IMG/VR virus record: IMGVR_UViG_3300009703_000007
Span: 1-30,120 of that record
From: a virus
Lineage: Duplodnaviria; Heunggongvirae; Uroviricota; Caudoviricetes
Length of the DNA: 30,120 bases
Direction: 5' to 3' (one strand)
How positions within the stretch are numbered: the stretch's first letter is position 1; each line of letters opens with the position of its first letter. Both the position numbers and the translations under genes were made by a program. Positions 4,654-26,821 of the stretch are shown here, piece after piece. The notes beneath the pieces were generated by a model. That model was given only the letters and a program-made list of their open reading frames with translations, was not told where the DNA came from and made no database searches.

Positions 4654-4667
4654 CAAGGACTTATACC
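4654..4667 (-). promoter_or_regulatory. GGTATAAG-N5-G promoter motif
   Basis: GGTATAAG TCCTT G. Confidence 0.7.
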
Positions 4668-4669
4668 AG

Positions 4670-5443
4670 TCAACCGATAGGGTTTAGAGGAAGGCGCTCA
4701 TGGAGATGCGTGAGCACCGCCAGCACTGCCTTGCTAGGATTATCCGTAGCAACCCCTGGTATCTTGATAGCAGATCCGTTGTTCATCTTGCCATCATCCA
4801 GGATGGCTCTGTTACGCGTTTCGTACTCAGGTGCGTCCAAGCCAGTAGGCTGGCACCCCACCTCGATGTCCTGGCGTATGCGGTAGATGCTGACCCAGTA
4901 TTTCTTGGCGTAGTACAGGCCCAGGACTTTGTACATACCCACGCCCGTACCTTTGAAGTATCCTCTGTAATCTCCACGCACTGCGTCTGTTTCAGTGTAG
5001 CTTGGTAGGTCAGCAGCCATCACTGCCCACTGGATAGTATCCAGAGCAGATTCAACGTCAGCATGGTTGGACATGTACTCCATCAGCACACTGAGCTGCG
5101 TTGGTGCGCTGCTATGCGTTGCAAGCATGTCCTCCCAAGCAGCCAACCCGTAAACAATGTCCTGAGGGTTGTTGAGGTATAGGCGCAGCTCTCTAGCGCT
5201 ACCTGTCCACACCTTGTTACCGAACTGCACACGCCGATGAAACTGAGCTTCTCCCTGCACGTCCCACCCTCCCAGTACCTTCCCTGGCCCCAATGACTTA
5301 TGTATCACAGGAGCGCCTTCGAGGATGCCGATGCCAGGAGGACCTTGAAGTATCTCACCAAAGGCTACCGGGCATTCGTCGTACAGTATCGGCATGTGAG
5401 AGACACTCCTGTATTCTCTTTGATGCGCGTCGTCTGTGTTCAT
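4670..5443 (-). CDS. hypothetical protein
   Basis: 257 aa ORF with GGAG RBS. Confidence 0.8.
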   Translation of the reverse strand: MNTDDAHQREYRSVSHMPILYDECPVAFGEILQGPPGIGILEGAPVIHKSLGPGKVLGGWDVQGEAQFHRRVQFGNKVWTGSARELRLYLNNPQDIVYGLAAWEDMLATHSSAPTQLSVLMEYMSNHADVESALDTIQWAVMAADLPSYTETDAVRGDYRGYFKGTGVGMYKVLGLYYAKKYWVSIYRIRQDIEVGCQPTGLDAPEYETRNRAILDDGKMNNGSAIKIPGVATDNPSKAVLAVLTHLHERLPLNPIG

Positions 5444-5460
5444 GGATTCTCCGTAATAAC

Positions 5461-5490
5461 CTAAAAGGACTTACGGGATAACCCAGCCTT
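5461..5490 (-). terminator. AAGGC..TAAG.CCTT hairpin + TTTTAG element
   Basis: AAGGCTGGGTTATCCCGTAAGTCCTTTTAG; near-identical to 7539-7569. Confidence 0.6.
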
Positions 5491-5502
5491 GTTCGTGGCA
5501 GC

Positions 5503-5886
5503 CTACGCTACCACTTTATTTTCGTTAGGGTCGTCTGGGCCACGCTCGGCCCAGTAGTCCCAGGTGAGGACGTCCTTGGTCCAGGGCACGATGCGCTTCT
5601 CATACAGGGGCCGGACCGGGTCGCCTCTATCGAAGAGCAGCCAGTCCTGTCCCAACCGAGAATCCATGTTCACTTCCTGGCCCTCTATGAGCTCCAAGGA
5701 AGCAGGGATGAGGCGATGGGTGTAGTGGGCCTGCTCGTAAAGGTCTGCGCTGACGCCAACGTCCCCGAGACGAGATACAGCGGTAACTACGACGGTCTGG
5801 CCTTCAATCAGGCCACACTCTCGCGTGAGGATCCGGAACTGTAGTCCTTTCATCCAACCCCAAGGTACTTCGAAAGAGAACGCCAT
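5503..5886 (-). CDS. hypothetical protein
   Basis: 127 aa ORF in the minus-strand gene run. Confidence 0.75.
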   Translation of the reverse strand: MAFSFEVPWGWMKGLQFRILTRECGLIEGQTVVVTAVSRLGDVGVSADLYEQAHYTHRLIPASLELIEGQEVNMDSRLGQDWLLFDRGDPVRPLYEKRIVPWTKDVLTWDYWAERGPDDPNENKVVA

Positions 5887-5889
5887 GAC

Positions 5890-6309
5890 TTAGCCTTTCA
5901 GTGGAGGAGGAGTGAGCGTAGCGCCCGGGATGCCGAACATGTACTGGGAGAAGGTTTCGTCGCCTTCCTGGCCCATGTTGTGAAGGATGTAGTTGTCCTT
6001 GCTGTCGTTGACTTTCTCCACCAGGTAGTGGACCAAGGGGTTCTTGATACGGCCCAACGCAGTCCTGAGATCGCCGGGGTCGACTTCCGTCTTCCCAGAC
6101 AGCAACGCATCCTTGGCTTCGAGCCACACGTAGCGAAGCCCAGAAGAGCTGCCTTCGTCAGGCCACGCCGACTTTGGGTCCAACGCCTCGCAGAGACGCA
6201 TCAGCCTAGCAGCGCTGCAGCGAGGGTTCTTGGCTACCCAGGTGGGGCTGAAAGGAGGCTCCGCTCCCTTATCTACTACTGGAGTCACCTTGTGTGTAAG
6301 CTTAGCCAT
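5890..6309 (-). CDS. hypothetical protein
   Basis: Start moved to the ATG at 6309 (MAKLTHK), which has a GGAGGAG RBS and overlaps the upstream stop. Confidence 0.7.
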   Translation of the reverse strand: MAKLTHKVTPVVDKGAEPPFSPTWVAKNPRCSAARLMRLCEALDPKSAWPDEGSSSGLRYVWLEAKDALLSGKTEVDPGDLRTALGRIKNPLVHYLVEKVNDSKDNYILHNMGQEGDETFSQYMFGIPGATLTPPPLKG

Positions 6310-6580
6310 ACCTTGTTTCTCCTCCATTTTCCCAAGCTCGTGACACGGCACCCAGGAAGTTTTCGTTGCGTACCTCCGCAACTATTGGTTGATCACCGTT
6401 AGGTAGTACGGCCCAGCATTTCGCTGCGCACCAGTACCCACCGGACATTTTCTTGTAGTACTCCATTTCAGCGAAGTACGCCACAGAACGAACGGCGGCA
6501 ATGCCGGCGTCGCGCTCTGCGTTGTTCTGGGCTATGAAGCCTGGTTTTGTTGTCATTGGCTTATACCATTTAATTGTCAT
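6302..6580 (-). CDS. hypothetical protein (start uncertain: 6580 or 6556)
   Basis: ORF coupled to the next gene; a promoter motif lies between its two 5' ATGs. Confidence 0.65.
   Translation of the reverse strand: MTIKWYKPMTTKPGFIAQNNAERDAGIAAVRSVAYFAEMEYYKKMSGGYWCAAKCWAVLPNGDQPIVAEVRNENFLGAVSRAWENGGETRYG
6554..6567 (-). promoter_or_regulatory. GGTATAAG-N5-G promoter motif
   Basis: GGTATAAG CCAAT G. Confidence 0.6.
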
Positions 6581-6625
6581 CTAAAACAAGGGCTTACCAC
6601 CACGTGAAAACGTGGCTGCCTTGTT
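6581..6625 (-). terminator. AAGGC..TAAG.CCTT hairpin + TTTTAG element
   Basis: AACAAGG CAG CCACG TTTTCA CGTGG TGGTAAGC CCTTGTT TTAG. Confidence 0.6.
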
Positions 6626-6631
6626 GAGCCG

Positions 6632-6922
6632 CTACCGAGCGTCGAGCGTGGAGTAGCTTCGATCCTGCAGGAGACGTCCGTCGTAGTACAGCTTGGCCTG
6701 GCGGGGGCTGTCTTCGAACTTGATGCCCATGGCCGGGAAGGCCGGGGTCATCTTGCTGGCCCACTCCTTGATGCCGATCGCTCCGTAGAGCTTCAGCAGA
6801 GCGATGGCTCGCTTGTGCTTGGTGGGATCCGTAGGGATCCGTATACAACGCAGGCCACCCGAAGGGGCCATGAACGTCGTGTATACGTGTTCCTTACGAT
6901 CGAGGTTGTACTGAGGCTGCAT
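6632..6922 (-). CDS. hypothetical protein
   Basis: 96 aa; promoter and GGAGGAG RBS upstream, hairpin downstream. Confidence 0.8.
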   Translation of the reverse strand: MQPQYNLDRKEHVYTTFMAPSGGLRCIRIPTDPTKHKRAIALLKLYGAIGIKEWASKMTPAFPAMGIKFEDSPRQAKLYYDGRLLQDRSYSTLDAR

Positions 6923-6938
6923 CTCTATTCTCCTCCTT

Positions 6939-6952
6939 CACAACCTTATACC
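6939..6952 (-). promoter_or_regulatory. GGTATAAG-N5-G promoter motif
   Basis: TTTTAG GGTATAAG GTTGT GAAGGAGG. Confidence 0.8.
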
Positions 6953-6997
6953 CTAAAAACAAGGGCTTACGCGCTAGAGCCCAGCCTTGTTTTTAGG
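6952..6997 (-). terminator. AAGGC..TAAG.CCTT hairpin + TTTTAG element
   Basis: 13-bp perfect inverted repeat CCTAAAAACAAGG / CCTTGTTTTTAGG, abutting the promoter. Confidence 0.7.
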
Positions 6998-7207
6998 TTA
7001 CCTGTGGTTACCGTGCTTCAGCACCTTCTTGGCCTCTTCCCACGTCAGGCCGATGACGACGCTGCTGCCGGGATCGCCACGAACGTTCACTTCGATGCCC
7101 TGCATGCTCTCCGTCAGGTAGACCATGTGGGAGGGGGCGAAGAGACGAGCGGGGCCAGGGACCCGATCACCGCTCTTACGAGTGAATTCAACGTACCGAG
7201 TTTCCAT
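6998..7207 (-). CDS. small hypothetical protein (weak FlbD/SwrD-like pattern)
   Basis: Start reassigned to the ATG at 7207 after GAAGGAGG. Confidence 0.7.
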   Translation of the reverse strand: METRYVEFTRKSGDRVPGPARLFAPSHMVYLTESMQGIEVNVRGDPGSSVVIGLTWEEAKKVLKHGNHR

Positions 7208-7222
7208 GCTGGGTACCTCCTT

Positions 7223-7236
7223 CACTATCTTATACC
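7223..7236 (-). promoter_or_regulatory. GGTATAAG-N5-G promoter motif
   Basis: GGTATAAG ATAGT GAAGGAGG. Confidence 0.8.
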
Positions 7237-7253
7237 TTGATTAGGGCCGAGTT

Positions 7254-7511
7254 TTAGCTCCCCAGACCTACGTCAGGGTTAGGATGGTGCGATGATACAT
7301 TTCCATACGGGTTCAGGTCCCGGATGTCCCTCATGATACTTTCTATCGTGTGTACCTTTGGGTCTAGGAAAATCCTGTCTGTACTAAACCCTTCTCCTGT
7401 GTGCGTTATCACCTGCACATAAATGCTTTCCCTACCCTCACGGATGTTCTGTATGCCATGGGGTTGTATGGCTAAACGGCCACCGGCCTTTAAGGATAAA
7501 ACAATAAACAT
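7254..7511 (-). CDS. small hypothetical protein (weak FlbD/SwrD-like pattern)
   Basis: MFIVLSLKAGGRLAIQPHGIQNIRE...; AAGGAG RBS. Confidence 0.7.
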   Translation of the reverse strand: MFIVLSLKAGGRLAIQPHGIQNIREGRESIYVQVITHTGEGFSTDRIFLDPKVHTIESIMRDIRDLNPYGNVSSHHPNPDVGLGS

Positions 7512-7538
7512 AACTTTACTCTCCTTGGTTATTACTAG

Positions 7539-7569
7539 CTAAAAGGACTTATGGGTATAACCCTGCCTT
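7539..7569 (-). terminator. AAGGC..TAAG.CCTT hairpin + TTTTAG element
   Basis: AAGGCAGGGTTATACCCATAAGTCCTTTTAG. Confidence 0.6.
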
Positions 7570-7576
7570 CACCGCC

Positions 7577-7822
7577 CTACGGCAGCTTACGGCCGATCCG
7601 ATCGGACCGGGCTTTCTTGATGAGCGAAGCGATCTGGGAGGGATCTCCCTTCACCTTGAGCTCCGTGTGGAATTCCTCGCCTACCTTGGACACGTCCAGA
7701 CGGATGTAACACAAGGTATCGTCCTTCCGCATGACGCGGGTGATGAGGTCTATGTTCAGGTACTCATCCTCGAAGACGACCGGGAGGGCTGCTCCACTAA
7801 CCGCTCGTTGTATACAAATCAC
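7577..7822 (-). CDS. small protein, FlbD/SwrD-like pattern
   Basis: YLNIDLITRV...LKVKGDPSQIASLIK resembles the FlbD pattern (by eye). Confidence 0.6.
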   Translation of the reverse strand: MICIQRAVSGAALPVVFEDEYLNIDLITRVMRKDDTLCYIRLDVSKVGEEFHTELKVKGDPSQIASLIKKARSDRIGRKLP

Positions 7823-8097
7823 TAAAGGTCTCCGTAGAAGACGCGGAAGTGCGCGTCGGGTTGCGTGGGAATCTCCAGCGAATCCGAGTGGATGAGCGCC
7901 GAGGACTCGGGGTAGGGGCCACCGTAGAACCAGTTGTTGATGCGACCTTCGTGGTCGGACGCGCAGTTCGTGGCGATGGCCTTGGCTCGGGTGGGGTTGG
8001 TAGCTCTGGAGTCGTCGGTGTGGAAGACCTCTCGCCCCTTGTCATCCACTTCCTCAATGTTCTTGTAGAGCATGACACGGTAGACCTTGCCACTCAT
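7822..8097 (-). CDS. hypothetical protein
   Basis: Start MSGKVYRV at 8097 via ATGA overlap. Confidence 0.7.
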   Translation of the reverse strand: MSGKVYRVMLYKNIEEVDDKGREVFHTDDSRATNPTRAKAIATNCASDHEGRINNWFYGGPYPESSALIHSDSLEIPTQPDAHFRVFYGDL

Positions 8098-8351
8098 TCG
8101 AGCACCGCTCCTTCCTTGAGGATCCAGTTGCACTTGGTGTTGAAGAGCTCGTTGCCTTCGTCGTTGTAGCCCTTCCACTTCGTGACCGTGCCGTCGATGT
8201 AGACCTCCAGCCGATCGATGTCGTTGCGCTTCACTCCTGCTCCGCTGGGCAGGGGCAACGAAGCCACGGCGATGGCCTTGGCACCGGTGTAGACCTCGTC
8301 CGGCTTGGGGTCGAACGACGCCAACATGTCTTCGATTCTGCTTTCTTCCAT
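8094..8351 (-). CDS. hypothetical protein
   Basis: ATG at 8351 after a GGAGG RBS and the promoter. Confidence 0.75.
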   Translation of the reverse strand: MEESRIEDMLASFDPKPDEVYTGAKAIAVASLPLPSGAGVKRNDIDRLEVYIDGTVTKWKGYNDEGNELFNTKCNWILKEGAVLE

Positions 8352-8370
8352 GATGCTTAGCACCTCCATT

Positions 8371-8384
8371 CAAGTACTTATACC
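8371..8384 (-). promoter_or_regulatory. GGTATAAG-N5-G promoter motif
   Basis: GGTATAAG TACTT GAATGGAGG; its TAA is also the stop codon of 8378..8626. Confidence 0.8.
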
Positions 8385-8626
8385 TGGGGAGGCTCTGGTC
8401 TTTCGTAAGGAATCAGCTTGTCCTTTCCTGGATGCAAAGCCAAGGAAATGAGGAAGCTGAATAGAAATGCAGTCACCCAGATCTCTACCCAAGCGTGCTT
8501 GAACTGAAGGGACGCGTCGCTATCGAACATACACCGGTATATCCAAGCAACAACGCCTATATGCGATCCCAGCGTCGCCAGCATCAGCGCGCATAGGAAT
8601 GGGGTGTTGAGGGGATTTTTAATCAA
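8378..8626 (-). CDS. small membrane protein (2 TM)
   Basis: Two hydrophobic segments; AAGGA RBS. Confidence 0.7.
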   Translation of the reverse strand: MIKNPLNTPFLCALMLATLGSHIGVVAWIYRCMFDSDASLQFKHAWVEIWVTAFLFSFLISLALHPGKDKLIPYERPEPPQV

Positions 8627-8689
8627 TGACTTTCCTTGGTTTGAGTTAAAAGGAAGGAACAGCTGATGCCACCCCTCCCTTCTCAGCTA

Positions 8690-9523
8690 TCAACTGATCT
8701 TGATGTTCATCTCGTTGAGGTCGACCTTGTTCGAACGCTCTACCTTGACCTCGAGAGTCTCGGCGTCGACGTAGGCTCCGTCGGCCCCCATTTGACGCAG
8801 GGCCGCGGCGGAGACCACCATGCCCTGAGACAAGGTCCGCTCCGGGTCCTCCAGGTCCACGTCGTCCAGGTTGATGATGACCTCTACAGTCTGGTACAGG
8901 TTGGGACGATCGCGGTCGTTGACGGCCTCCGTCGTGCCCTGCAGCCCCGTGTCCTTGACCATCTGTGCCATGTTGGACTCGAGCGTTCGGATCACGTCAT
9001 CGAGCAGCACGACCTGCGTCCCGGACTGAGTGGCGACCCAGTACATGATGAGCTCGATGAGCCGCTCGCCGTTCAGGGACGGGATACCTGTGCCCTTCAA
9101 GAACAGCATCTGCTGACTCAGGTCCATCTCCTTGAACAGCGCTTCTGTCGTCTGTGTGCGTAGCCCGGCGTAGTGCACTACGCGGCCGTGGTTGTCCACG
9201 AACACCAGCCCACTGCTCTGCAGCCACTCCGCGTACGTCGCGTCCCCGTAGTCCTTCTTGAGCAGCGTCAGCTCACTGGTGGTGGGGTACCAGCTCTGAG
9301 TAGAGTCGCTGTCCCGCTCCACCTTGGACATGTTGAAGTAGCGGCTGAGCCCGTGGACCTCACCCTGGTGGAGGGACGCTCCGAACTGCTTGGTGAGTAT
9401 GTCTGTGGCCCCCACCAAAGTGAGGTCGGGGTTGTGGGTGAAGGCCGAGAGCAACACCCCGCGCTTGATCGCGTGCGACTGACGCTTGTGCCCCGCTTTC
9501 GAGAAAAGGATCCCATCTGTCAT
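8690..9523 (-). CDS. hypothetical protein
   Basis: ATG at 9523 after GGAGG; GC3-rich codons. Confidence 0.8.
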   Translation of the reverse strand: MTDGILFSKAGHKRQSHAIKRGVLLSAFTHNPDLTLVGATDILTKQFGASLHQGEVHGLSRYFNMSKVERDSDSTQSWYPTTSELTLLKKDYGDATYAEWLQSSGLVFVDNHGRVVHYAGLRTQTTEALFKEMDLSQQMLFLKGTGIPSLNGERLIELIMYWVATQSGTQVVLLDDVIRTLESNMAQMVKDTGLQGTTEAVNDRDRPNLYQTVEVIINLDDVDLEDPERTLSQGMVVSAAALRQMGADGAYVDAETLEVKVERSNKVDLNEMNIKIS

Positions 9524-9542
9524 AGTACTAAGCACCTCCATT

Positions 9543-9556
9543 CTCTAGCTTATACC
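9543..9556 (-). promoter_or_regulatory. GGTATAAG-N5-G promoter motif
   Basis: GGTATAAG CTAGA GAATGGAGG. Confidence 0.8.
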
Positions 9557-9565
9557 TCAAAAAGG

Positions 9566-9608
9566 GCTAAAAGAGCGAGGGGTATTACGTCGCCCGACTC
9601 TTCTTTTA
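9566..9608 (-). terminator. imperfect hairpin + TTTTAG element
   Basis: TAAAAGAAGAG...CTCGCTCTTTTAGC. Confidence 0.5.
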
Positions 9609-9830
9609 ATCAAGTATCACCCTCGGCCTCGGGGGAAGCTGGTAGCACGACGCGGTTGGAGGGTAGCGACGCACGTCAATGACATGCAACGCCTTGCTTT
9701 GCTTGGACCCACAGCTCTGACACGAGCTGAACTGGCCCAGACGGGGAGTACCGCAGTGAAGGCATTCCACTGAGGTTTCACGTTGGTTAGGACGAGGGAA
9801 TGGCTCAAGGGGTTCCACTGATCGAGTCAT
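9606..9830 (-). CDS. small zinc-ribbon protein
   Basis: CLHCG...CQSCG; ATGA overlap. Confidence 0.7.
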   Translation of the reverse strand: MTRSVEPLEPFPRPNQRETSVECLHCGTPRLGQFSSCQSCGSKQSKALHVIDVRRYPPTASCYQLPPRPRVILD

Positions 9831-10078
9831 CCCACCCTACTTCCACTAACGTAGACGACGATCTTAGGCCAGACCTCGGCCAGGGACTCAATCTCCGGGT
9901 TCTGGAACAAGCACCGAAGGTACACATCCTTCTGCGCGTGACAGAAGCGACGGGCTTCACCGCTGGTAGCGAACCGCTGCAGCTCCACCCTCCCGTCCCT
10001 CCGGATCAAGATGAACTTCGTGTCCATCACCAGCGCATGTGGCTCGGTAGCCACGTATGGCTTGGGGTCTCTACCCAT
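9827..10078 (-). CDS. hypothetical protein
   Basis: Start MGRDPKP overlaps the stop of the upstream gene. Confidence 0.65.
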   Translation of the reverse strand: MGRDPKPYVATEPHALVMDTKFILIRRDGRVELQRFATSGEARRFCHAQKDVYLRCLFQNPEIESLAEVWPKIVVYVSGSRVG

Positions 10079-10502
10079 CTCCCTCATACCGGATCCAGTC
10101 CTTGCTGGCCGCGTGCGACTCGGCCCCCGTCCAACACAGGTCGTAGCCATCCTGGTCCTTGGGCCAGGGCTGCTTCAGGACGGTCTCGAAGAACCGACGG
10201 CAGGCGCTGTCGTACACCCGCTCATCCTCGTCGCAGAAGAAGATGTGGTCGTCGTCGACGAGGGCACGCCACCACATGTCCCACTCGTTGGTGCACTGGG
10301 ACTCCTTGCGCGTGGTGACCACGTAGACGTTGAGGCCCTTCTCGATCGCCGACTCGATCACTCCCAGCGAGAAGATCCGCCAGCCCTGCTGGGTCGTACC
10401 ACGCAGGACGAGGTCCTCCGCAACGTATGCGTTGACTCCGTAGGGCTTCTGGATGTCCGACGTCGACATGACGCAAGGGACACCGATGTTCTGTGTGCTC
10501 AT
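10071..10502 (-). CDS. hypothetical protein
   Basis: 143 aa, after the promoter and GAAGGAGG. Confidence 0.8.
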   Translation of the reverse strand: MSTQNIGVPCVMSTSDIQKPYGVNAYVAEDLVLRGTTQQGWRIFSLGVIESAIEKGLNVYVVTTRKESQCTNEWDMWWRALVDDDHIFFCDEDERVYDSACRRFFETVLKQPWPKDQDGYDLCWTGAESHAASKDWIRYEGDG

Positions 10503-10518
10503 AGTTAGGCACCTCCTT

Positions 10519-10532
10519 CAAACACTTATACC
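10519..10532 (-). promoter_or_regulatory. GGTATAAG-N5-G promoter motif
   Basis: TTTTAG GGTATAAG TGTTT GAAGGAGG. Confidence 0.8.
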
Positions 10533-10573
10533 CTAAAAGAAGCGTGGCTTCAGCCATCCCCTTCTTCTTTAGG
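10532..10573 (-). terminator. hairpin + TTTTAG element
   Basis: CCTAAAGAAGAAG..TGGC TGAA GCCA..CTTCTTTTAGG. Confidence 0.6.
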
Positions 10574-10819
10574 CTACCGACCGTATCCCCGTCCTTGGGA
10601 TATAACGATGGAGCCTACGACGATTCTGCCTTCGGCTGTGATGTCCTCGTCTTTGTTGAGCGAGCCCAGAGGGCTGAGGTCGGCATGGACGAGGATCGTG
10701 ACCGGCCCTGTCTTGGGGAGCCCCTTCCGCAACGCTGCTTCTACTTGGTTGATCAGCGATCCTCGAAGGTTTGCTACGTCCCCAGGCACGGTGAGGTCAC
10801 TGTGATGGTGTTCGGTCAT
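10574..10819 (-). CDS. hypothetical protein
   Basis: 81 aa; ATGA overlap with the upstream gene. Confidence 0.7.
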   Translation of the reverse strand: MTEHHHSDLTVPGDVANLRGSLINQVEAALRKGLPKTGPVTILVHADLSPLGSLNKDEDITAEGRIVVGSIVISQGRGYGR

Positions 10820-11172
10820 CGTGGTCCGTCCTCCAGCACAGACTCGAAGCCGCGGTCGCTGCGTCGCACGGGCAACGACTTCCGTCGCTTGTGCGACTCG
10901 CTGACGTTGACCTGGATGACGCTGTACACGCCGTCCTGGGAGCGGTCCACCACGAGCCCGATCGTGTTGTTGTTTCGGTTGAGTACTACCAGACCGAACC
11001 CGGGCTGGAGCTCACCTTCGACCACGCCGGGACCCAGGCCTCCCGCTTCCTTCGTGTCCAGTACCTCCTGGACCATGGCCTGGCCGAGAGGAGAGGTGAT
11101 CTCTCCCAGGCAGGCTTCGAACTCGGGTCGATCACGAGGATGACGCACAGTCATTCCGGTGTTGAGTTGCAT
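10816..11172 (-). CDS. hypothetical protein
   Basis: 118 aa, after the promoter and GAAGGAGG. Confidence 0.8.
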   Translation of the reverse strand: MQLNTGMTVRHPRDRPEFEACLGEITSPLGQAMVQEVLDTKEAGGLGPGVVEGELQPGFGLVVLNRNNNTIGLVVDRSQDGVYSVIQVNVSESHKRRKSLPVRRSDRGFESVLEDGPR

Positions 11173-11190
11173 AGTACTTAGTGCCTCCTT

Positions 11191-11204
11191 CGTATACTTA
11201 TACC
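11191..11204 (-). promoter_or_regulatory. GGTATAAG-N5-G promoter motif
   Basis: GGTATAAGTATACGAAGGAGG; 21 nt identical to the copy at 22034-22054. Confidence 0.8.
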
Positions 11205-11433
11205 CTAAAAGCTAAAAGGATGCGGGCGGTAGCCAGCTTTTAGTGCGTGCGGCTATGGGGCCACGCGCGCATCCTCTAGACAGGTAACCCCACAGTGCTT
11301 ATCCCCATTCTGCGACTTTTGTACTAGCGTCGCTCTAGTGTTCGTGTTGTGCTCGTTAGAAGGTGAGGAGTGCGTGCATGACGACCACGGGGCCCTTCAC
11401 CCAATGCATTTGTCAAGCGCAGTCCTTTCCTTC
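11205..11433 (-). ncRNA. candidate structured non-coding RNA
   Basis: Lies between promoter 11433-11446 and a tandem TTTTAG end; only very short ORFs; several stems (GCGAC/GTCGC, GGATGCG/CGCATCC, CTAAAAGCT/AGCTTTTAG). Confidence 0.4.
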
Positions 11434-11446
11434 AATTCCTTATACC
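11433..11446 (-). promoter_or_regulatory. GGTATAAG-N5-G promoter motif
   Basis: GGTATAAG GAATT GAAGG. Confidence 0.75.
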
Positions 11447-11450
11447 TCCA

Positions 11451-11565
11451 AAGAAGCCAAAGTACGGATCGTGAGAAAAGCAGTAGGCGGCGTGTCCTTT
11501 CTGGCCCAGCTAGCCTTGTCCACCACCCGCTGCCTTTCTTACGATCCGTGCTTTACCTGCTTCTT
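11451..11565. repeat. long imperfect inverted repeat
   Basis: Arms 11459-11483 and 11530-11554 match at 22/25 positions, plus an outer AAGAAGC/GCTTCTT pair. Confidence 0.85.
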
Positions 11566-11573
11566 CTGGCCCT

Positions 11574-12419
11574 CTACGACTTTCTCAACAACAGAACCGC
11601 TAGGTCTGCGATCCCTTGCGTTGCTTGGGCGTACACCTCAGCGGCGTTGGGCATGTGCTTCTCCGCAAGGCCTACATGGTCCCAGGCCTTTATCGGGTGT
11701 CCTTCACACCCGTAGAGCAGAAAAACCTCTCCGTTATCTAGGTAGTACGCACTCCAGAAGAAGCCTCCCCAAACCCCTGAGGCCAGCTCTGTGAGGGAGG
11801 ACACCCCGGCGTCGCCGGACACCTCGGCGTTGCCGGACACCTCGGCGTTGCCGAATACCTTGGAGTTGCCGGATACCCTGGAGTTGCCGGACACCTCGGC
11901 GTTGCCGGATACCCTGGAGTTGCCGGACACCTCGGCGTTGCCGAACACCCCGGCGTCGCCGAATACCTTGGCGTTGCCGAATACCCTGGAGTTGCCGGAC
12001 ACCCCGGCGTAGCCGGATACCCTGGAGTTGCCGGACACCTCGGCGTTGCCGAATACCTTGGAGTTGCCGGATACCCTGGAGTTGCCGGACACCCCGGCGT
12101 CGCCGGATACCTTGGCGTAGCCGAATACCCAGGAGTTGCCGGACACCTCGGCGTTGCCGAATACCTTGGCGTTACCGGATACCCTGGAGTTGCCGGACAC
12201 CCCGGCGTAGCCGGATACCCTGGAGTTGCCGGACACCCAGGCGTCGCCGAATACCTTGGAGTTGCTGCCCACGAATGCTGACCATTGTACGTCAGCAGTA
12301 CCCGCCACCCACCCACCTCCGTTGGCGTGCCTGTGTGCCGGGACCTCACCCCTACCATCACCGAAGTTGTGCATGGTGACCTCTGCGTCTTCTGTATCTA
12401 CTTGTGGGACGTTGTTCAC
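11574..12419 (-). CDS. hexapeptide-repeat (left-handed beta-helix-like) protein
   Basis: HRHANGGGWVA N-terminal motif, about 26 V(S/F)G(N/D/Y)(S/A)x repeats, C-terminal YGCEGH. Confidence 0.85.
   Translation of the reverse strand: MNNVPQVDTEDAEVTMHNFGDGRGEVPAHRHANGGGWVAGTADVQWSAFVGSNSKVFGDAWVSGNSRVSGYAGVSGNSRVSGNAKVFGNAEVSGNSWVFGYAKVSGDAGVSGNSRVSGNSKVFGNAEVSGNSRVSGYAGVSGNSRVFGNAKVFGDAGVFGNAEVSGNSRVSGNAEVSGNSRVSGNSKVFGNAEVSGNAEVSGDAGVSSLTELASGVWGGFFWSAYYLDNGEVFLLYGCEGHPIKAWDHVGLAEKHMPNAAEVYAQATQGIADLAVLLLRKS
11799..12272. repeat. 18-bp coding tandem repeat, about 26 units
   Basis: Minus-strand unit GT(A/G)T(C/T)CGGC(A/G/T)AC(G/T)CC(A/G/T)(A/G)G. Confidence 0.95.
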
Positions 12420-12448
12420 TCATCTCCTCCATTTGGTTGGTTGTTTCT

Positions 12449-12462
12449 CAGTAACTTATACC
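12449..12462 (-). promoter_or_regulatory. GGTATAAG-N5-G promoter motif
   Basis: GGTATAAG TTACT GAG. Confidence 0.75.
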
Positions 12463-12485
12463 TCTAGTCTACCCTAATATTGGAT

Positions 12486-15154: not shown

Positions 15155-15160
15155 TATACT
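15155..15160 (+). promoter_or_regulatory. TATACT -10-like box (candidate late promoter)
   Basis: CTATACTT also precedes the plus-strand genes at 17757 and 19034. Confidence 0.4.
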
Positions 15161-17756: not shown

Positions 17757-18668
17757 ATGAAATCTTCAGCTAGACTGATGTGTTTGTTTTTAGTTGCTGT
17801 ACTTGGTATAGCAGGTTGTTCCGATGTCTCTGTACAGAGTACGCATCTCCCTGAAGCTGCTGTAGACTCTTTCCAGCAGCTGCCTGAGATTGACGGTGTA
17901 GATATACTGTGGGTCGTAGACCAGTCATGCTCTATGCTGTCAGAGGCTAACGAAGCCCGGACGGTGGAGGGCATTACTGCGATGATGGAAGCCCTACCCC
18001 TCGATGTTCAGTGGAGATTGGGAATTACCTCAGCGGATCCCTTTGCCACTTTGCAGGACGACTTCTTTCCACTGCTACCGGGCGACGATGCTCAGGACGC
18101 TCTGCAGAGACTGTGGGATATAACGTACGGGCCCGGAGAAGCGGGGTTAGCTGCTACACACGCGCATATTAGAGAGTTCGCTGGACGGTATGGAGTAGAC
18201 GATTGGATGCGTAGGGACGCGGTGTTGCTGGTCGTGGCTGTGTCCGACGAGGAGGATCAGTCTTACGGGTACGACGTACAAGACTTCGTAGACTGGTTCA
18301 GATCGGAGCGCGTTGTGTCACGGTTTATACCGGTGGTAGCTACTGGTGAGAACGAATGCGAAGACCAATACACGACTACCGGCCTGCGGTACATGGCAGC
18401 TGCTACAGCTCTCAACTCGCCCTACGTAGACTTTTGTCAGGAGGATTGGGCACAGGCTGTGGCCGACATAGGCAGTGAGACTGTTGAACCTATTGAGACA
18501 TTCGAGCTAAACGAAGAGCCCTACGAGGATTCCATCGTGGTGGAAGTAAACCACCTGCCTTGGAGTGGAACCTGGGAGTACTTGCCTGACGAGAACGCGG
18601 TGTTCTTCGTAGACGTTCCTCCTCCGGGTTCGTTTGTGACGGTGGGGTACCTCATAGCTGGGACCTAG
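17757..18668 (+). CDS. VWA-domain lipoprotein
   Basis: Lipobox IAGC; MIDAS DQSCS in DILWVVDQSCSM; GEAGL; RRDAVLLVVAVSDEEDQS. Confidence 0.85.
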   Translation: MKSSARLMCLFLVAVLGIAGCSDVSVQSTHLPEAAVDSFQQLPEIDGVDILWVVDQSCSMLSEANEARTVEGITAMMEALPLDVQWRLGITSADPFATLQDDFFPLLPGDDAQDALQRLWDITYGPGEAGLAATHAHIREFAGRYGVDDWMRRDAVLLVVAVSDEEDQSYGYDVQDFVDWFRSERVVSRFIPVVATGENECEDQYTTTGLRYMAAATALNSPYVDFCQEDWAQAVADIGSETVEPIETFELNEEPYEDSIVVEVNHLPWSGTWEYLPDENAVFFVDVPPPGSFVTVGYLIAGT

Positions 18669-18957
18669 GCAGCAACGCCTGGACCACCAGGAGTGGCCAC
18701 GCCATGACGGACTTGCAGAACTCTACAGCACGCCATCCGCGAAACGACATTCTCGACTCTATGGGAGTGTGCGTGTAGTAGTCAACGTACTGCTTTGAGT
18801 GGAGCAGGTAAACGTCGTCGTCCTGCCAGACGTTGAGGGACAGCACCACGCCTACGCTGACATAAGTGGGAACAGCGCCCCACGGAGTGTACTCAAACGT
18901 GAGTACGGCGCAAAGCGCTACCGCCAAGTAGGACAGCAGCTCGGCGATCTTGGACAT
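18652..18957 (-). CDS. small membrane protein
   Basis: Hydrophobic segments; own promoter and AAGGAG RBS. Confidence 0.75.
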   Translation of the reverse strand: MSKIAELLSYLAVALCAVLTFEYTPWGAVPTYVSVGVVLSLNVWQDDDVYLLHSKQYVDYYTHTPIESRMSFRGWRAVEFCKSVMAWPLLVVQALLPRSQL

Positions 18958-18972: not shown

Positions 18973-18986
18973 CAACATCTTATACC
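18973..18986 (-). promoter_or_regulatory. GGTATAAG-N5-G promoter motif
   Basis: GGTATAAG ATGTT GAAAGGAG. Confidence 0.8.
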
Positions 18987-20565: not shown

Positions 20566-20567
20566 CC

Positions 20568-20876
20568 ATGCACGTGGTCGACACCGAAAAGCTGGCGTCG
20601 CTCCTAGAGTTCGACGAAGACGACGTAGGCCTTGTAGACTTCGCTAAGCTGGCGGAGTACGACAGGCAGTACTACCTCCGCAACAAAGCCAAGATACGTG
20701 CACGCAACCGACAGTGGCGAGCTAAAAACAAGTACAAAGTCAAACGGAGAAGTCGGATCTACAAGCGACAGCTAAAAATGGGTAGGAAGCCCCGGAAACG
20801 CATAGGCGCACCCGGAGCAGGGTACACCTATGTGAGTCGTGGTGGTGCTAACTTCCAGCGAGGCAGAACCTTCTAG
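20568..20876 (+). CDS. protein with acidic N-terminus and very basic C-terminus
   Basis: EKLA...FAKLA, then YDRQYYLRNKAKIRARNRQWRAKNK. Confidence 0.75.
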   Translation: MHVVDTEKLASLLEFDEDDVGLVDFAKLAEYDRQYYLRNKAKIRARNRQWRAKNKYKVKRRSRIYKRQLKMGRKPRKRIGAPGAGYTYVSRGGANFQRGRTF

Positions 20877-21235
20877 TCCGCGGTGCAGACGAGGTTGTGC
20901 AGCTGTATGTAGTACAATCCGTCAGAGTCCAACGACGAATCCGAGTGACAGAGCACGCGATGCCGCACAGCAACGAATCCAGGCTTCTCCGGAATAGGCC
21001 ACTGCACTAGCTGAAAGAACGTACCAGTCCCGGACTCCAGCACGCAAGCAGAGCTGTTCACAATCCAGTTCTCACTATCGACCACAACGTATTGCGGGTC
21101 TTCTCCAGCAATGGGAATAGTTCGCAACTGGAATGACTCCTCAGGATTCTCGTCTGGACCCCACAACTCGTCCAGGATCAGATAGGGGCCTGCCTTAAGT
21201 TGGTAGTATACTACCGGATTGACTTTCTCTGACAT
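20873..21235 (-). CDS. hypothetical protein
   Basis: 120 aa, downstream of promoter 21296-21309. Confidence 0.75.
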   Translation of the reverse strand: MSEKVNPVVYYQLKAGPYLILDELWGPDENPEESFQLRTIPIAGEDPQYVVVDSENWIVNSSACVLESGTGTFFQLVQWPIPEKPGFVAVRHRVLCHSDSSLDSDGLYYIQLHNLVCTAD

Positions 21236-21295: not shown

Positions 21296-21309
21296 CACTT
21301 ACTTATACC
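21296..21309 (-). promoter_or_regulatory. GGTATAAG-N5-G promoter motif
   Basis: GGTATAAG TAAGT GAAG. Confidence 0.75.
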
Positions 21310-21686: not shown

Positions 21687-21725
21687 CACGCACCCACCGG
21701 CTCGAGCCAGCAGATACGCATAAGT

Positions 21726-22025
21726 CTACACGATCCGGAATCCGCAGATGTCCTTTCGAGGGATCCATCGCTTGACCGGAGCGTTTCGGTTATCGGTCAC
21801 GACGACCAGGCCCGCCGCGGACTGTCGGATGTTCGACCCGGTGATCACCTCAAAGTTACGGTCCACCGGGCGTTTGACCAGTAGCTCGTACCGACGCCAG
21901 CGGCTACGCGGAGACATCCACTCTCGAGTGATCGTGACCGGCAACGGCTTGAAGCCCGTCTTGGGACGAGCCCAGTGCCGGAAGTTCCGTATGGGGTGCG
22001 GGATCAGCTTCTGCAAAAACAGCAT
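21726..22025 (-). CDS. basic hypothetical protein
   Basis: Promoter and GAAGGAGG upstream. Confidence 0.75.
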   Translation of the reverse strand: MLFLQKLIPHPIRNFRHWARPKTGFKPLPVTITREWMSPRSRWRRYELLVKRPVDRNFEVITGSNIRQSAAGLVVVTDNRNAPVKRWIPRKDICGFRIV

Positions 22026-22040
22026 TCTACGTACCTCCTT

Positions 22041-22054
22041 CGTATACTTATACC
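22041..22054 (-). promoter_or_regulatory. GGTATAAG-N5-G promoter motif
   Basis: GGTATAAG TATAC GAAGGAGG. Confidence 0.8.
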
Positions 22055-22076
22055 ATAGGTACGTAGTGCTATTTGT

Positions 22077-22478: not shown

Positions 22479-22479
22479 C

Positions 22480-23100: not shown

Positions 23101-23153
23101 TTGTATTTCCTATTGTTGGCGGAGGTTTGTCCGCTGATGATCTCGAGGTAAGA

Positions 23154-23808: not shown

Positions 23809-23839
23809 GCGGTAGTCCGTCGGTGGTTAAGTAGGGTGG

Positions 23840-23866
23840 CATCTCCTACTATGTAGACAGGAGATG
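23840..23866 (+). promoter_or_regulatory. RBS-sequestering hairpin with a TACTAT box in the loop
   Basis: CATCTCCT actatgtagac AGGAGATG. Confidence 0.55.
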
Positions 23867-23868
23867 TG

Positions 23869-24228
23869 ATGAATATTGAACAGGCTTACGCCGCAGGCTT
23901 TCAGGCGGCTATTGATGATTTCCTTAAGGTAGCGACACTCTCACCCGCAGCCATGCGCACTGTTGCCATGGGAGGGCTGGGCGCAGTAAGCGGAGCTGCA
24001 GGTGGAGCACTTAGCACGGATAAAGCCATGCACGAGAACCTGCCTGGATTGGACGGCGCCTACAAAGAAAGGCGACGAAAAAGAGGTTTGATAGGTGCTG
24101 GTCTGGGTGCCATAGCAGGCGCTGCTGGAGGCCACGGACTCAACGTCGCGCAGGACATGGCACAAGCTGCAAAGCCTAAACCACTCCTCCAGCTCCCCGC
24201 TCCTACGGTGGTGCCTCCTGTTCCGTAA
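23869..24228 (+). CDS. glycine-zipper protein
   Basis: AYAAGFQAAIDDFLKVA leader; GGLGAVSGAAGG and GLIGAGLGAIAGAAGG. Confidence 0.8.
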   Translation: MNIEQAYAAGFQAAIDDFLKVATLSPAAMRTVAMGGLGAVSGAAGGALSTDKAMHENLPGLDGAYKERRRKRGLIGAGLGAIAGAAGGHGLNVAQDMAQAAKPKPLLQLPAPTVVPPVP

Positions 24229-24242
24229 GGGGGGGTATGTTG

Positions 24243-24674
24243 TTAGCTAACGTACCCAGTTTCATCGACACTGTACACACCGTCAACGGGCTCTTCGGTG
24301 CGAGCCCTTCCGTCGCGCAGCACAGCAAGATGGTGCTCTCCCGTTACGGCAGCGTAATCGGGTGCTTCCCGGATCACCCTGCCTGGTATTTCTTCCCAGT
24401 TGTAAGGGCGGGAATAGATGGATACCTCGATATGATTGCCCGCATGACTTCTGCCGCAGTAGGCGCCCACCCAGGAGTATCCGGACTCCGCAGTAGTCTT
24501 CCGTACAAGTAGTTCTCTATCAGCCGCGGAAGGCATCACAGCTACCAGCTTACTACTGTGTGTGGGATGCAGAGTGACTGTACGTACTGCAGGTTCGTAG
24601 ATCACAAGCAGCATACCGAAACCACTTTCGTGTGCAGAGTCTTGGAGTTCCAGAGAAAATTCTTCCACGATCAC
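24243..24674 (-). CDS. hypothetical protein
   Basis: GTGA overlap with the nucleotidase gene; GGAG RBS. Confidence 0.7.
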   Translation of the reverse strand: MIVEEFSLELQDSAHESGFGMLLVIYEPAVRTVTLHPTHSSKLVAVMPSAADRELLVRKTTAESGYSWVGAYCGRSHAGNHIEVSIYSRPYNWEEIPGRVIREAPDYAAVTGEHHLAVLRDGRARTEEPVDGVYSVDETGYVS

Positions 24675-25270
24675 GCTGTATTCTCCTGCTCGTGCAATAT
24701 TCGACGTATTGATGACAAGGCCTGATCCCAGTTGTACACCAAGTCAACGTTGTCGGGGATGTGTACGCCCTGATTACCAGGGGCATTGAATAGTATCGCC
24801 TGTCTCCCCCAGGCGTCAGCCCAAGCAATAGCATTTTCGTGGTGGTCTTCTACGAGCACACGGCCGTTCACCAAAGACTTATCCTTAGCGAAGATGACGT
24901 CTTTCTCCACCAAGCAAGTGTGGGTAGCGATCCAGCGCCTACGTTCGTAGTCCCATGTCGGAGCTGTCCAAACAGGGCTGGTGAGAATCTTGACTGAGAG
25001 ACCATACGAGTTCACCAGGATATCAACTGCGTTTACTGCTCCGGGCAAAGCCCCCATACTACTGGCGAACCCGGGAGCGTCCATCGCCCTGTAGATGTCT
25101 TTGGTGGCTTCTCCGAACTGCTTGTACAGGTCAGCGTACGCCATGTCCTGGGTGTAGGGCAGTCCCATTAGGTCAGCGGTGTCGCCAAGCTGTCCTAAGA
25201 AATCACTTAGTACTCCGTCACAGTCAAGAAGAATGGGCAGCTCTGTTATGTGTTTGTTACTCATGTCCAC
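24671..25270 (-). CDS. HAD-superfamily 5'(3')-deoxyribonucleotidase (NT5C-like)
   Basis: LLDCDGVLSDF motif I; ILTSP; KDKSLVNGRVLVEDH. Confidence 0.9.
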   Translation of the reverse strand: MDMSNKHITELPILLDCDGVLSDFLGQLGDTADLMGLPYTQDMAYADLYKQFGEATKDIYRAMDAPGFASSMGALPGAVNAVDILVNSYGLSVKILTSPVWTAPTWDYERRRWIATHTCLVEKDVIFAKDKSLVNGRVLVEDHHENAIAWADAWGRQAILFNAPGNQGVHIPDNVDLVYNWDQALSSIRRILHEQENTA

Positions 25271-26276
25271 TCTCGGCGTTTGTCGCTGCGTATGCCGCTG
25301 CGTACCTATCGATTATGATTCTCATGACTTCGTCACGGTTAGGCTGGTCAGGAAGCTCAGACGCCGCAGAAGCCTCTTCTACTCTCACTACCCACTCGTC
25401 CAACTCCTCAGCAAGTTCCTCGTAAGGTACTTGACCTTTTCGTATGGAAAGGAGCCTCGACGCGTCAGGTCTAGGAAAAGTGATGTGGCCTGTTTGTAGA
25501 AGTTCAACAGTCTCAGACGACACACGTATGGCGTGCATTACCGCCTTCCAGTCGACACCGTCAGCAGAGGCCGCGGCTTGTGCACGTCTTCCGTAGCGGT
25601 CGACCAGAGGCTGCAGCGTACTGTCTATGGAGTACTGCACACCGTTGTAGAAAGGGATCTTCCTGCCACACACTGATAGCGCTGGTGCTGTGGAATACTT
25701 GTCACCATTGGTGACCACCACTGACACTAGTTCCATGTGGTCTCCGTTGGCTAACGTGTCCATTGTTCGCGGCCAGTCACCAACTTTTGACCCAGGCTTA
25801 CTCTGCTCCAGCGTCTCGAAGGCAATCAACGCCTCTTTGGCTTCGCACAGTCGTTGGGTCTTAACACTGTAACTAGGCGCTTGGGCCCGGCAGTACCCGA
25901 CCATCTTCTCCACGTTCTTGGAAATGATCAGCGGCTTCAAAACGTCGCGCAGAGGCCCCCAGGTTTCCCGGGTGCCTAAAGGTTGATCACTAAACAGGAG
26001 TTCTATCGCTACAGTTTGGCCACACAATGCAAGCTGGGCCCACTGAGCTAAAGTAAAGATCTCCAAATCAAGGATGCCTGCTGACGTGTCTATGTCAGAG
26101 AAGTTGATGGTAGGTTTTATCCGCCTGTGTACCACGTCGCCAAAGCTCTCTACATAGATCGACTTGAAGTCTAGATCGGATCCCTCTACAGCGGTTCCGT
26201 ACAAATGACTTCCGTAGGGAGACACGAGTATTGGGGCGGATCCAGCGGGTAGAAGGCGTAAAACTGAGGATAGCAT
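25257..26276 (-). CDS. Pol-beta-superfamily nucleotidyltransferase (T4 NrdC.11 / RlaP-like)
   Basis: YGSHLYGTAVEGSDLDFKSIY; DWKAVMHAIRV; ITFPRPDA..LLSIRKG. Confidence 0.9.
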   Translation of the reverse strand: MLSSVLRLLPAGSAPILVSPYGSHLYGTAVEGSDLDFKSIYVESFGDVVHRRIKPTINFSDIDTSAGILDLEIFTLAQWAQLALCGQTVAIELLFSDQPLGTRETWGPLRDVLKPLIISKNVEKMVGYCRAQAPSYSVKTQRLCEAKEALIAFETLEQSKPGSKVGDWPRTMDTLANGDHMELVSVVVTNGDKYSTAPALSVCGRKIPFYNGVQYSIDSTLQPLVDRYGRRAQAAASADGVDWKAVMHAIRVSSETVELLQTGHITFPRPDASRLLSIRKGQVPYEELAEELDEWVVRVEEASAASELPDQPNRDEVMRIIIDRYAAAYAATNAESGHE

Positions 26277-26302
26277 ATGGTATTGCCCCCTATAATAAAG
26301 TT

Positions 26303-26821
26303 ATGGTACTCACACACGTACAACTCATACGTTTGATTACACTGCCTTATACCAAAGAAGCTGCCAATTTAAGGTTAGGTACGCTCAAGGCCGTGGGAGC
26401 CGGTGCAGGCCTAGGTGCAGGCCTAGGTGCTGCTCACGCAGCTTGGAAAGGGGAGGAGCTGGGTGAAGGCGCAGCTAGAGGAGGACTACTGGGTGCGGTT
26501 GGCATGGGTGTAGGTAGGCACAACGTCAACAAAGTAATGCAGTCAGGGCTGGACAGGCGTGTACGAGACGCTGCTATTGATGTAGCTGGCGCCGGTGGGC
26601 GAAGTTTGGACAACGTTTTGTCGGCGTCTCCTCAGTACGCTACGAAAGTCACTCAGAAAGCTGTAGATAATTCCCTGGGTGGACTCATGGATCCTGCGCT
26701 GTTGGCTGCTCGTGAGGGTGCTGAGATGGGTCGTATAGGTGCAAGGAGTCGTTCCGGCGAACGTGCGTTGGCCGACTTCTTGGCCAAGAACCCGGGGGGT
26801 GTAGCCAGTCCAGCACCCTGA
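26303..26821 (+). CDS. glycine-zipper protein
   Basis: ATG 6 nt after TATAAT (possibly leaderless); YTKEAA, then GAGAGLGAGLGAA. Confidence 0.75.
   Translation: MVLTHVQLIRLITLPYTKEAANLRLGTLKAVGAGAGLGAGLGAAHAAWKGEELGEGAARGGLLGAVGMGVGRHNVNKVMQSGLDRRVRDAAIDVAGAGGRSLDNVLSASPQYATKVTQKAVDNSLGGLMDPALLAAREGAEMGRIGARSRSGERALADFLAKNPGGVASPAP
26340..26353 (-). promoter_or_regulatory. GGTATAAG-N5-G promoter motif for the nucleotidyltransferase operon
   Basis: GGTATAAG GCAGT G, located inside the plus-strand CDS. Confidence 0.65.

Follow-up and report, generated by a model that had tools for sequence, protein, structure and literature searches.

What is the short box GGTATAAG that recurs on one strand of the tailed-phage record IMGVR_UViG_3300009703_000007, and which polymerase reads it? 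The window analysed here is the initial 30,120 nucleotides (nt) of this IMG/VR record, which is 158,120 nt long in all (designated G000; G+C 52.9%, estimated completeness 89%). A first-pass annotation of the window had listed 14 plus-strand copies of CTTATACC, whose minus-strand reading is GGTATAAG, and had proposed that they are early promoters for a phage RNA polymerase (RNAP). That GGTATAAG is a promoter element of the non-structural gene class is well supported by the sequence comparisons described below; we infer its promoter activity, start site, timing and choice of polymerase and sigma factor from the statistics, position and conservation of the motif.

A strand-specific box between genes

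The search of the window showed 14 exact matches of CTTATACC on the plus strand, at exactly the coordinates given in the first-pass annotation, and none on the minus strand. In 100 dinucleotide-preserving shuffles of the window, the mean was 0.68 copies and the maximum 4, with 14 copies reached in 0/100. The genome-wide count on both strands gave the same picture: the full record contains 24 copies of GGTATAAG on the minus strand and none on the plus strand, with an order-3 Markov expectation of 2.45 per strand, and 21 of the 24 are intergenic, compared with an intergenic share of 11.9% of the genome. The gene map used for this count came from our own simple codon-usage gene caller (193 genes, mixed orientation), which was applied throughout except to Salmonella phage Arash and to loci with called genes. 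Under the order-3 Markov model, GGTATAAG ranked first among the strand-biased over-represented 8-mers of G000, and it was likewise the top strand-biased 8-mer in three relatives given the same scan, Arash included. The order-3 model was used because a maximal-order background masked the motif, whose 7-mers are enriched too.

Most of the 24 boxes lie 21–35 nt 5′ of a minus-strand start codon. In the window, nine of the 14 sit 21–25 nt, and one 35 nt, ahead of a minus-strand start codon that is served by a strong GGAGG ribosome-binding site, and the remaining ones are followed by a leader of 66–141 nt or by just a very short open reading frame (ORF). Box variants with a single mismatch were considered as weaker promoters and rejected, as 18 of 110 were intergenic in G000, no enrichment over background. 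The element is therefore all-or-none.

Anatomy of the box and its flanks

All eight letters of the box, TATAAG included, are invariant in the 24 copies. The sixth nucleotide past the box is a purine in every copy (G in 20, A in 4), the fifth is T in 18 of 24, and A-rich bases follow. The first-pass annotation had placed a G exactly 6 nt downstream, which is correct for all 14 window copies; its description of the downstream letters as usually TGAA was slightly generous, as TGAA occurs in seven of 14, GAA in ten and GAAGGAGG in five. A T–purine pair at fixed spacing is the pyrimidine/purine signature of a multisubunit-polymerase start site, and the purine is the putative +1. Because the fixed purine after a pyrimidine resembles a start site, many messenger RNAs (mRNAs) would begin 2–3 nt before the Shine–Dalgarno sequence. 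The earlier proposal had placed the +1 at the G, with mRNAs beginning at the Shine–Dalgarno sequence.

On the 5′ side, the copies share a T-rich stretch at −6 to −3, and about half of them have a weak C..AAA signal 16–21 nt upstream. The copies lack TTGACA, and a k-mer search found no strong −35 shared among those of G000, in line with the earlier remark that the copies have no −35 of sigma-70 type in common; an upstream element is clear only in the relative G004 (cCGAAAA) and weak elsewhere. In the −10 elements of sigma-70 promoters, T at −7 is close to invariant. The box has A at −11, and its −7 letter is G, not T, in 24/24 copies, so that it departs from the −10 consensus TATAAT. The base preceding the GG of the box is T in nine of 24 copies, so that a TG extension is not a property of the element. 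In window positions 1–13000, a block of small minus-strand ORFs, matches to the sigma-70 consensus promoter numbered 2, versus 6.2 in shuffles.

When the 55 nt upstream of each box were folded, terminators of the A-tract/hairpin/T-tract type, ending in ...TTTTAG, were found directly before about 6–7 of the 24 boxes. A simple terminator scan of the window showed no excess (11 versus 10.7). As these terminators abut the next box, the arrangement is one of promoter–gene–terminator units.

Conservation of the box and its variants in relatives

Relatives were gathered from an alignment of homologues of the C-terminal part of the RNAP beta′ subunit (beta′-C), which gave 80 IMG/VR loci with a local G+C of 34% to 70%. 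A search with a single protein query of 888 amino acids (aa) yielded no relatives, and none of 50,697 phage records matched in a DNA search with 7.9 kilobases (kb) of the window. Several hundred homologues of the beta′-C protein come from metagenomes, some of them encoded on contigs of 165–197 kb, and the same protein is present on a 177-kb contig.

The closest relative, L022, has a beta′-C 73% identical to that of G000, and in the DNA 5′ of its RNAP gene no similarity to the window could be detected. Despite this divergence, three GGTATAAG boxes precede minus-strand genes in L022. In more distant relatives, with a beta′-C about 45% identical, the whole-genome counts of GGTATAAG on the forward/reverse strands were 13/1 in G001, 2/18 in G002, 10/0 in G003, 4/0 in G005 and 1/7 in G008. 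The boxes of G001 and G002 are mostly intergenic and lie 20–40 nt 5′ of same-strand genes. This also applies to the minority-strand copies, and G002 carries a back-to-back divergent pair at 60182 and 60196. The strand rule is therefore a gene-orientation rule: the strand specificity claimed for the motif holds in G000 (24/0) and not as a property of the motif itself, since the few other-strand copies in the relatives precede genes on that strand.

Other relatives use variants of the box: GGTAAAAG in G004 (1/14), where the upstream cCGAAAA element is found, and in G008 (1/25); GTTATAAG in Vibrio phage D69 (1/18); and GGTANAAG in G005 (23/0). The family-wide form is GGTAnAAG, with GGTA and AAG mostly fixed (GTTA in D69) and the fifth base free. 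Genomes with the box or its variants have a G+C of 45% to 66%, and their boxes head replication and nucleotide-metabolism operons, transfer RNAs (tRNAs), the transfer-messenger RNA (tmRNA) and small early-looking ORFs. When the 80 loci were oriented by the RNAP gene, 26 copies of GGTATAAG lay on the opposite strand and five on the same strand, although the reversed-word control was biased the other way and is not a neutral baseline. A further candidate, TTGAGGTA of G005 and G007, was rejected as it appears to be coding sequence.

A separate observation concerns copies that lie antisense inside orthologous conserved genes with conserved flanks, namely G001 171616 (+) with G002 145262 (−), and G001 43866 (+) with G002 90833 (−). 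These could be conserved antisense promoters or could reflect a conserved peptide read on the other strand.

Boxes ahead of RNA genes

Beyond the window, two copies of the box stand ahead of RNA genes. G000 encodes a full-length tmRNA at 148966–149406 (−), corresponding to L015:19466–19906 (Rfam RF00023, 78.6 bits, E = 1.6e-28), and a GGTATAAG box lies 20 nt ahead of its mature 5′ end. Another box lies 20 nt upstream of a tRNA at about 135093–135928 (−), called Gln-CTG by ARAGORN, whose anticodon loop is split by a 759-nt group I intron (intron core at L015:5640–6103; Rfam RF00028, 69.3 bits). The presence of the box before a tmRNA and a tRNA speaks against a function in translation.

The intron contains an ORF that, to judge by its appearance, may encode an HNH-type endonuclease. 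The large-subunit gene of ribonucleotide reductase (G000 83463–87080 (−), corresponding to L012:13663–17280; 1205 aa) carries an HNH endonuclease segment, inserted at about residues 439–538, which suggests an intein or other mobile insertion.

Phage RNA polymerase and sigma genes

Pfam domain searches showed that the phage encodes its own RNAP. A fusion of beta with the N-terminal part of beta′ (beta/beta′-N) is encoded by an ORF of 1799 aa at 125659–131058 (+), with matches to Rpb2_2/3/6 and Rpb1_1/2 (6.5e-44 for Rpb2_6) and an intact catalytic loop, NLDYDGD, at residues 1708–1714, in which the Asp triad is kept. The beta′-C part (600 aa, Rpb1_5) is encoded at 28356–30158 (+), of which 28356..30120 falls in the window, on the strand opposite to all boxes. 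The genes for beta′-N and beta′-C lie about 60 kb apart on a circular map. In the relative G003, the frame that starts in beta′-N at 48896–52804 (−), corresponding to L161:8896–12804, is open for 1303 codons. This open frame suggests that beta′-N and beta′-C may form a single polypeptide in G003.

No paralogues that would make up a second RNAP set were found by phmmer or tblastn in the 158-kb record, which is 89% complete. A T7-like RNAP (PF00940) gave no match in the phage, and the control search gave none either.

Two genes of the sigma-70 family are present. One, s2, is encoded at 113180–114040 (+) and is 286 aa long, with full-length alignment to RpoS/SigA structures (E = 2e-24). The other, s1, is encoded at 64526–65230 (+), is 234 aa long and is more divergent, with a Pfam region 3 match and weak SigA matches. 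The RNAP genes and both sigma genes are all on the strand of G000 that carries no boxes.

Prediction of a complex between s1 and a beta′-N fragment gave a score of 0.68, with the best control at 0.00. Of 80 solved complexes, 58 reach this mark, as do two of 110 mismatched pairs. Agreement between runs amounted to at least 32% of contacts, and the partner had a predicted local distance difference test (pLDDT) value of at least 67. The predicted contacts join residues 141–186 of the beta′ fragment, which to judge from their positions are probably the clamp helices, with residues 20–61 of s1, its N-terminal helices. Because sigma/beta′ complexes have already been solved, this pass may only reflect likeness and is no proof of binding.

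Salmonella phage Arash, a cultured relative

Salmonella phage Arash (OQ632216.1) carries GGTATAAG 30 times on the complement strand and once on the other. Of the 29 copies in its first 145 kb, 24 lie 12–60 nt 5′ of the starts of annotated complement-strand coding sequences or tRNAs, and the genes so headed include a ligase gene, a helicase gene and a string with ribonuclease H and primase genes. A start region, GTGTAAA, is common to the Arash sites, where its distance from the box exceeds that in G000 by one base.

As in G000, there is a beta/beta′-N fusion gene (gp206, annotated as RNAP beta), a beta′-C (gp216, 34% identical) and both sigma factors: gp10 is 33% identical to s1 (E = 1e-37), and s2 matches the gp196 locus. 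The RNAP, sigma and virion genes likewise lie on the strand opposite to the boxes, and the two phages differ in that protein identity is only about one third. G000 in turn shows the features of Arash-like phages, namely a bacterial-type RNAP with an intact Asp triad, both sigma orthologues, and an over-represented box that lies between genes, points in the direction of the non-structural genes and occupies the strand opposite to that of the RNAP and sigma genes.

Mass spectrometry of Arash virions showed that beta gave the most spectra, that beta′ was present and that gp10 was present with 100% coverage, and the s2 orthologue gp196 is absent from the virion protein table (PMC10585845). Within this group, evidence that virions carry the RNAP and the s1 counterpart comes from Arash only. 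The words ‘promoter’ and ‘motif’ are both absent from that paper (PMC10585845).

A second candidate box on the structural strand

The strand of the virion genes has a candidate box of its own, (cc)TATACT, which is conserved in G001, G002 and G003. Plus-strand examples in G000 lie at 15155, 17736 and 19005 of the window and at 34029, 113168 and 120644 of the record. The intergenic share of (cc)TATACT is 12/20 in G001, 13/19 in G002 and 12/39 in G000, and counts of CCTATACT are 0/8 in G001, 6/0 in G002 and 2/8 in G003. The (cc)TATACT box often stands 5–7 nt ahead of an ATG, including that of the s2 gene in G000, G001 and G002, and a position so close to the start codon implies leaderless mRNAs. 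Ahead of the s2 gene of G000, it is accompanied by TTGACA 16 nt upstream.

Which polymerase reads the box

With moderate confidence, we read GGTATAAG as the −10-like core of the promoters of the non-structural units, recognized by the phage RNAP together with a phage sigma factor. The reader probably includes a sigma factor, because two sigma-70-family genes are present in the phage and the box is conserved in the manner of a sigma-type −10. In the likely register of a sigma-read −10, positions −12, −11 and −7 would be fixed and −10 free, as in such elements, and −7 would here be G.

On this reading, the box would head units made up of small early-looking ORFs, the nucleotidyltransferase gene, tRNAs and tmRNA. 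Transcription would start at the conserved purine 6 nt past the box, preceded by T, and would give mRNAs with leaders of 16–20 nt that begin 2–3 nt ahead of the Shine–Dalgarno sequence. Several units would end at A-tract/hairpin/T-tract terminators abutting the next box. The reader would be the bacterial-type phage RNAP (the 1799-aa fusion plus the 600-aa beta′-C) with a phage factor of the sigma-70 family, for which s1 would be the best candidate, its Arash orthologue gp10 occurring in virions alongside the polymerase. This holoenzyme would be injected together with the DNA, and s2, which is RpoS/SigA-like, would then switch transcription to the structural strand with its (cc)TATACT boxes. 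The genes for the RNAP and s1 stand among the virion genes, always opposite to the boxes, and the two components, found in Arash particles, are therefore the best candidates for an injected holoenzyme. In D69 and G004, s2 belongs to a string of genes that follows a same-strand box, which fits s2 as a product of the box-driven class that then switches transcription.

A wider proposal is more tentative, and we hold it at rather less than even confidence. It states that a widespread phage family of 160–200 kb injects a full bacterial-type holoenzyme, consisting of its own beta/beta′ core and a dedicated, divergent sigma factor whose −7 pocket has shifted from T to G and which reads GGTAnAAG independently of the host, and that an RpoS-like sigma factor then redirects transcription to (cc)TATACT on the strand of the virion genes, with several leaderless mRNAs. 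This would amount to a self-contained two-sigma programme whose box stays the same or changes little among phages with a G+C of 45% to 66%.

Several observations weigh against the reading by a phage holoenzyme. The s2 gene lies outside box-driven units in G000, G001, G002 and Arash, so the sigma cascade does not follow one order throughout, and the arguments for assigning s1 rather than s2 to the box are indirect. The box contains TATAA, and from its letters alone recognition by a host sigma-70 is possible. A few copies are not obviously promoters: the one at 119673 is within a helicase gene, the one at 118139 shares bases with the 3′ end of a called gene, and the one at 26346 overlaps a doubtful plus-strand ORF call; those at 4660, 11439, 123323, 123398, 125605 and 146583 have a long leader, only a short ORF or no called gene nearby. 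The record is only 89% complete, and the missing part may carry a second RNAP set. Finally, the Arash virion preparation contained 116 proteins, ribonucleotide reductases and ligases among them (PMC10585845); with metabolic enzymes in this list, contaminants are possible, which weakens the packaging argument.

Of the alternatives, the one that survives best, though we regard it as unlikely, is that the host core RNAP is redirected to the box by a phage sigma factor, either s1 from the virion or s2 made early, and that the phage RNAP serves the other gene class. Known phage sigma factors such as SPO1 gp28 and T4 gp55 work in this way with the host core enzyme (textbook knowledge), and both factors of G000 belong to the sigma-70 family. 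The sigma-type conservation pattern of the box and the bacterial-type intrinsic terminators adjoining it would also agree with a host core. However, the same box is kept in phages with a G+C of 51% to 67%, all of which have their own RNAP. The RNAP genes are moreover co-oriented with the virion genes, and the Arash RNAP tops the particle spectral counts, a pattern that agrees with an injected enzyme requiring its own class of promoters. Binding of s1 to the phage enzyme would be in keeping with the predicted s1/beta′ interface, though that prediction may have passed through likeness to solved complexes.

It is quite improbable that the host housekeeping holoenzyme recognizes the box as an ordinary strong −10 with no phage factor, the phage RNAP being reserved for the structural strand. 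In favour of this view, TATAAG agrees with TATAAT at five of six positions, the spacing to the purine is the usual one, there is a T-rich stretch on the 5′ side, and many phages transcribe their early genes with the host enzyme. What argues against it is the G at −7 in every copy, where sigma-70 has a near-invariant T, together with the absence of both the TG extension and TTGACA. The 8-mer is also all-or-none and not degenerate, and relatives hold to GGTAAAAG or GTTATAAG as strictly as G000 holds to GGTATAAG. The RNAP and s1 genes would, moreover, be left without an early promoter of this class, despite the presence of the enzyme in Arash virions. That the box is no promoter at all, and acts instead within the RNA, as a site of processing or an enhancer of translation, or as a DNA site for replication, packaging or modification, is very improbable: its near-fixed distance to the Shine–Dalgarno sequence in the window would suit such a role, but it also stands before the tmRNA and tRNA, which have no ribosome-binding site, abuts terminators, forms the divergent back-to-back pair in G002 and always has the orientation of the downstream gene.

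Taken together, the data retain the core of the original proposal of an early promoter for a phage RNAP: the motif shows promoter behaviour locked to gene orientation, and the phage has an RNAP of its own. The class is better described as non-structural than as strictly early, since in relatives the box heads replication and nucleotide-metabolism operons, tRNAs and a tmRNA in addition to small early-looking ORFs.

Box sites in the window

All 14 boxes of the window read on the minus strand; the spans given here run from the box to the conserved G, and each distance from a start codon is counted upstream of that codon. Five sites continue as N5-GAAGGAGG. The site at 6939..6952 lies directly after an A-tract/hairpin/T-tract terminator and 22 nt from the ATG of ORF 6632–6922, and that at 7223..7236 lies 21 nt from the ATG of ORF 6998–7207. 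The site at 10519..10532 lies directly after a terminator ending in CTTCTTTTAG and 22 nt from the ATG of ORF 10071–10502; that at 11191..11204 is preceded by a terminator and lies 24 nt from the ATG of ORF 10816–11172; and that at 22041..22054 lies 21 nt from the ATG of ORF 21726–22025. The sites at 8371..8384 and 9543..9556 continue as N5-GAATGGAGG and lie 25 nt from the ATG of ORF 8094–8351 and of ORF 8690–9523, respectively, the latter with a terminator-like hairpin upstream. The site at 18973..18986 (N5-GAAAGGAG) lies 21 nt from the ATG of ORF 18652–18957, a lone minus-strand ORF amid plus-strand virion genes. Downstream of the site at 11433..11446 (N5-GAAGGAAAGG) there is no ORF of at least 50 aa, and a 30-codon TTG ORF or a non-coding RNA would occupy the space before the next box.

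The other sites have the N5-G form. The box at 4654..4667 is followed by a minus-strand ORF from 4554, with a leader of about 100 nt. The box at 6554..6567 has a hairpin and a T-run upstream, and the ORF that follows may start at either 6448 or 6556. The box at 21296..21309 lies 66 nt from the ATG of ORF 20873–21235, and the closest relative L022 has a box in the corresponding region. The box at 26340..26353 (TGTAA) precedes the nucleotidyltransferase gene (25257–26204/26276) with a leader of 69–141 nt; when compared with L022, the flanks have diverged, and only the box, the T-run on its 5′ side and TGTAA have been kept. The box at 12449..12462 lies in a divergent intergenic region, 35 nt from the GTG of ORF 11574–12419, which encodes a beta-solenoid repeat protein.

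This ORF, the first minus-strand gene after the divergent box, consists of 18-nt (six-residue) repeats with YdcK beta-solenoid and bactofilin-like Pfam matches, and the enriched words GTTGCCGG and GTATTCGG arise from these repeats. Another word, TAACCCCG, occurs 10 times on the minus strand of G000 and not on the plus strand (0.97 expected); its copies are scattered (for example, window positions 13004, 18142 and 29132) and have unlike flanks. A tRNA search of the window found none.

Comparison with known systems

Phage-specific promoters read by phage RNAPs are known from T7, N4, phiKZ and AR9. A large clade of uncultured Caudovirales encoding bacterial-like beta and beta′, termed mReC, has been described by Weinheimer and Aylward (PMC7481178). 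Like this clade, G000 has RNAP homologues that are widespread on metagenomic phage contigs, several of them of 165–197 kb, and its family probably is the mReC clade. PF07068, the T4-type capsid family reported for mReC, gave no match in G000, and the control genomes gave none either. Promoters and sigma factors are not discussed in the mReC paper (PMC7481178). A literature search with the box 8-mer returned unrelated primers only, and searches on mReC promoters and on virion RNAP with sigma factors found nothing for Arash-like or mReC-like phages, so that no published description of a GGTATAAG promoter was found.

To the extent of these searches, no promoter has been published for the uncultured phage clade with a bacterial-like beta/beta′ polymerase, and such a polymerase has not been reported to act with a sigma-70-family factor of its own. 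The box is short and exact, and relatives whose hosts are probably very different bacteria have it unchanged or in slightly varied form. It would define the transcription units of these genomes, predicts early transcription independent of the host, and would offer a −10 element that naturally has G at −7 and a possible source of compact orthogonal promoter, sigma and polymerase parts. Arash is available in culture and has 30 copies of the identical box, and both the polymerase and one sigma factor are present in its particles, so that the whole model is testable at the bench now.

The first-pass annotation had placed the box in the setting of jumbo phages. The likeness to phiKZ and AR9 is that a virion-packed multisubunit phage RNAP reads a short phage-specific motif before early genes (PMC7598289; PMC5312081). 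Phages of that type exceed 200 kb, have two split RNAP sets (virion and non-virion) and are not known to have a sigma-70-family factor. The jumbo-phage setting does not fit G000, which, unlike these phages, has one RNAP set of more bacterial-like type, two sigma genes and a record of 158 kb. The early motifs of phiKZ and AR9 are also different, being AT-rich.

Bacterial sigma-70 promoters, including those with an extended −10, share with the box the TATAA core, a pyrimidine–purine start 6–7 nt downstream, an optional upstream element and intrinsic terminators. The box differs from them in having G for T at −7, GG for TG upstream, no TTGACA and an invariant 8-mer instead of a degenerate hexamer. 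The phage sigma cascades of SPO1 (gp28 and gp33/34), T4 (gp55) and phiEco32 (gp36) are alike in that phage sigma factors set temporal classes through distinct short boxes, here GGTATAAG and (cc)TATACT. Unlike these cascades, which according to textbooks use the host core enzyme, G000 also encodes a phage core enzyme.

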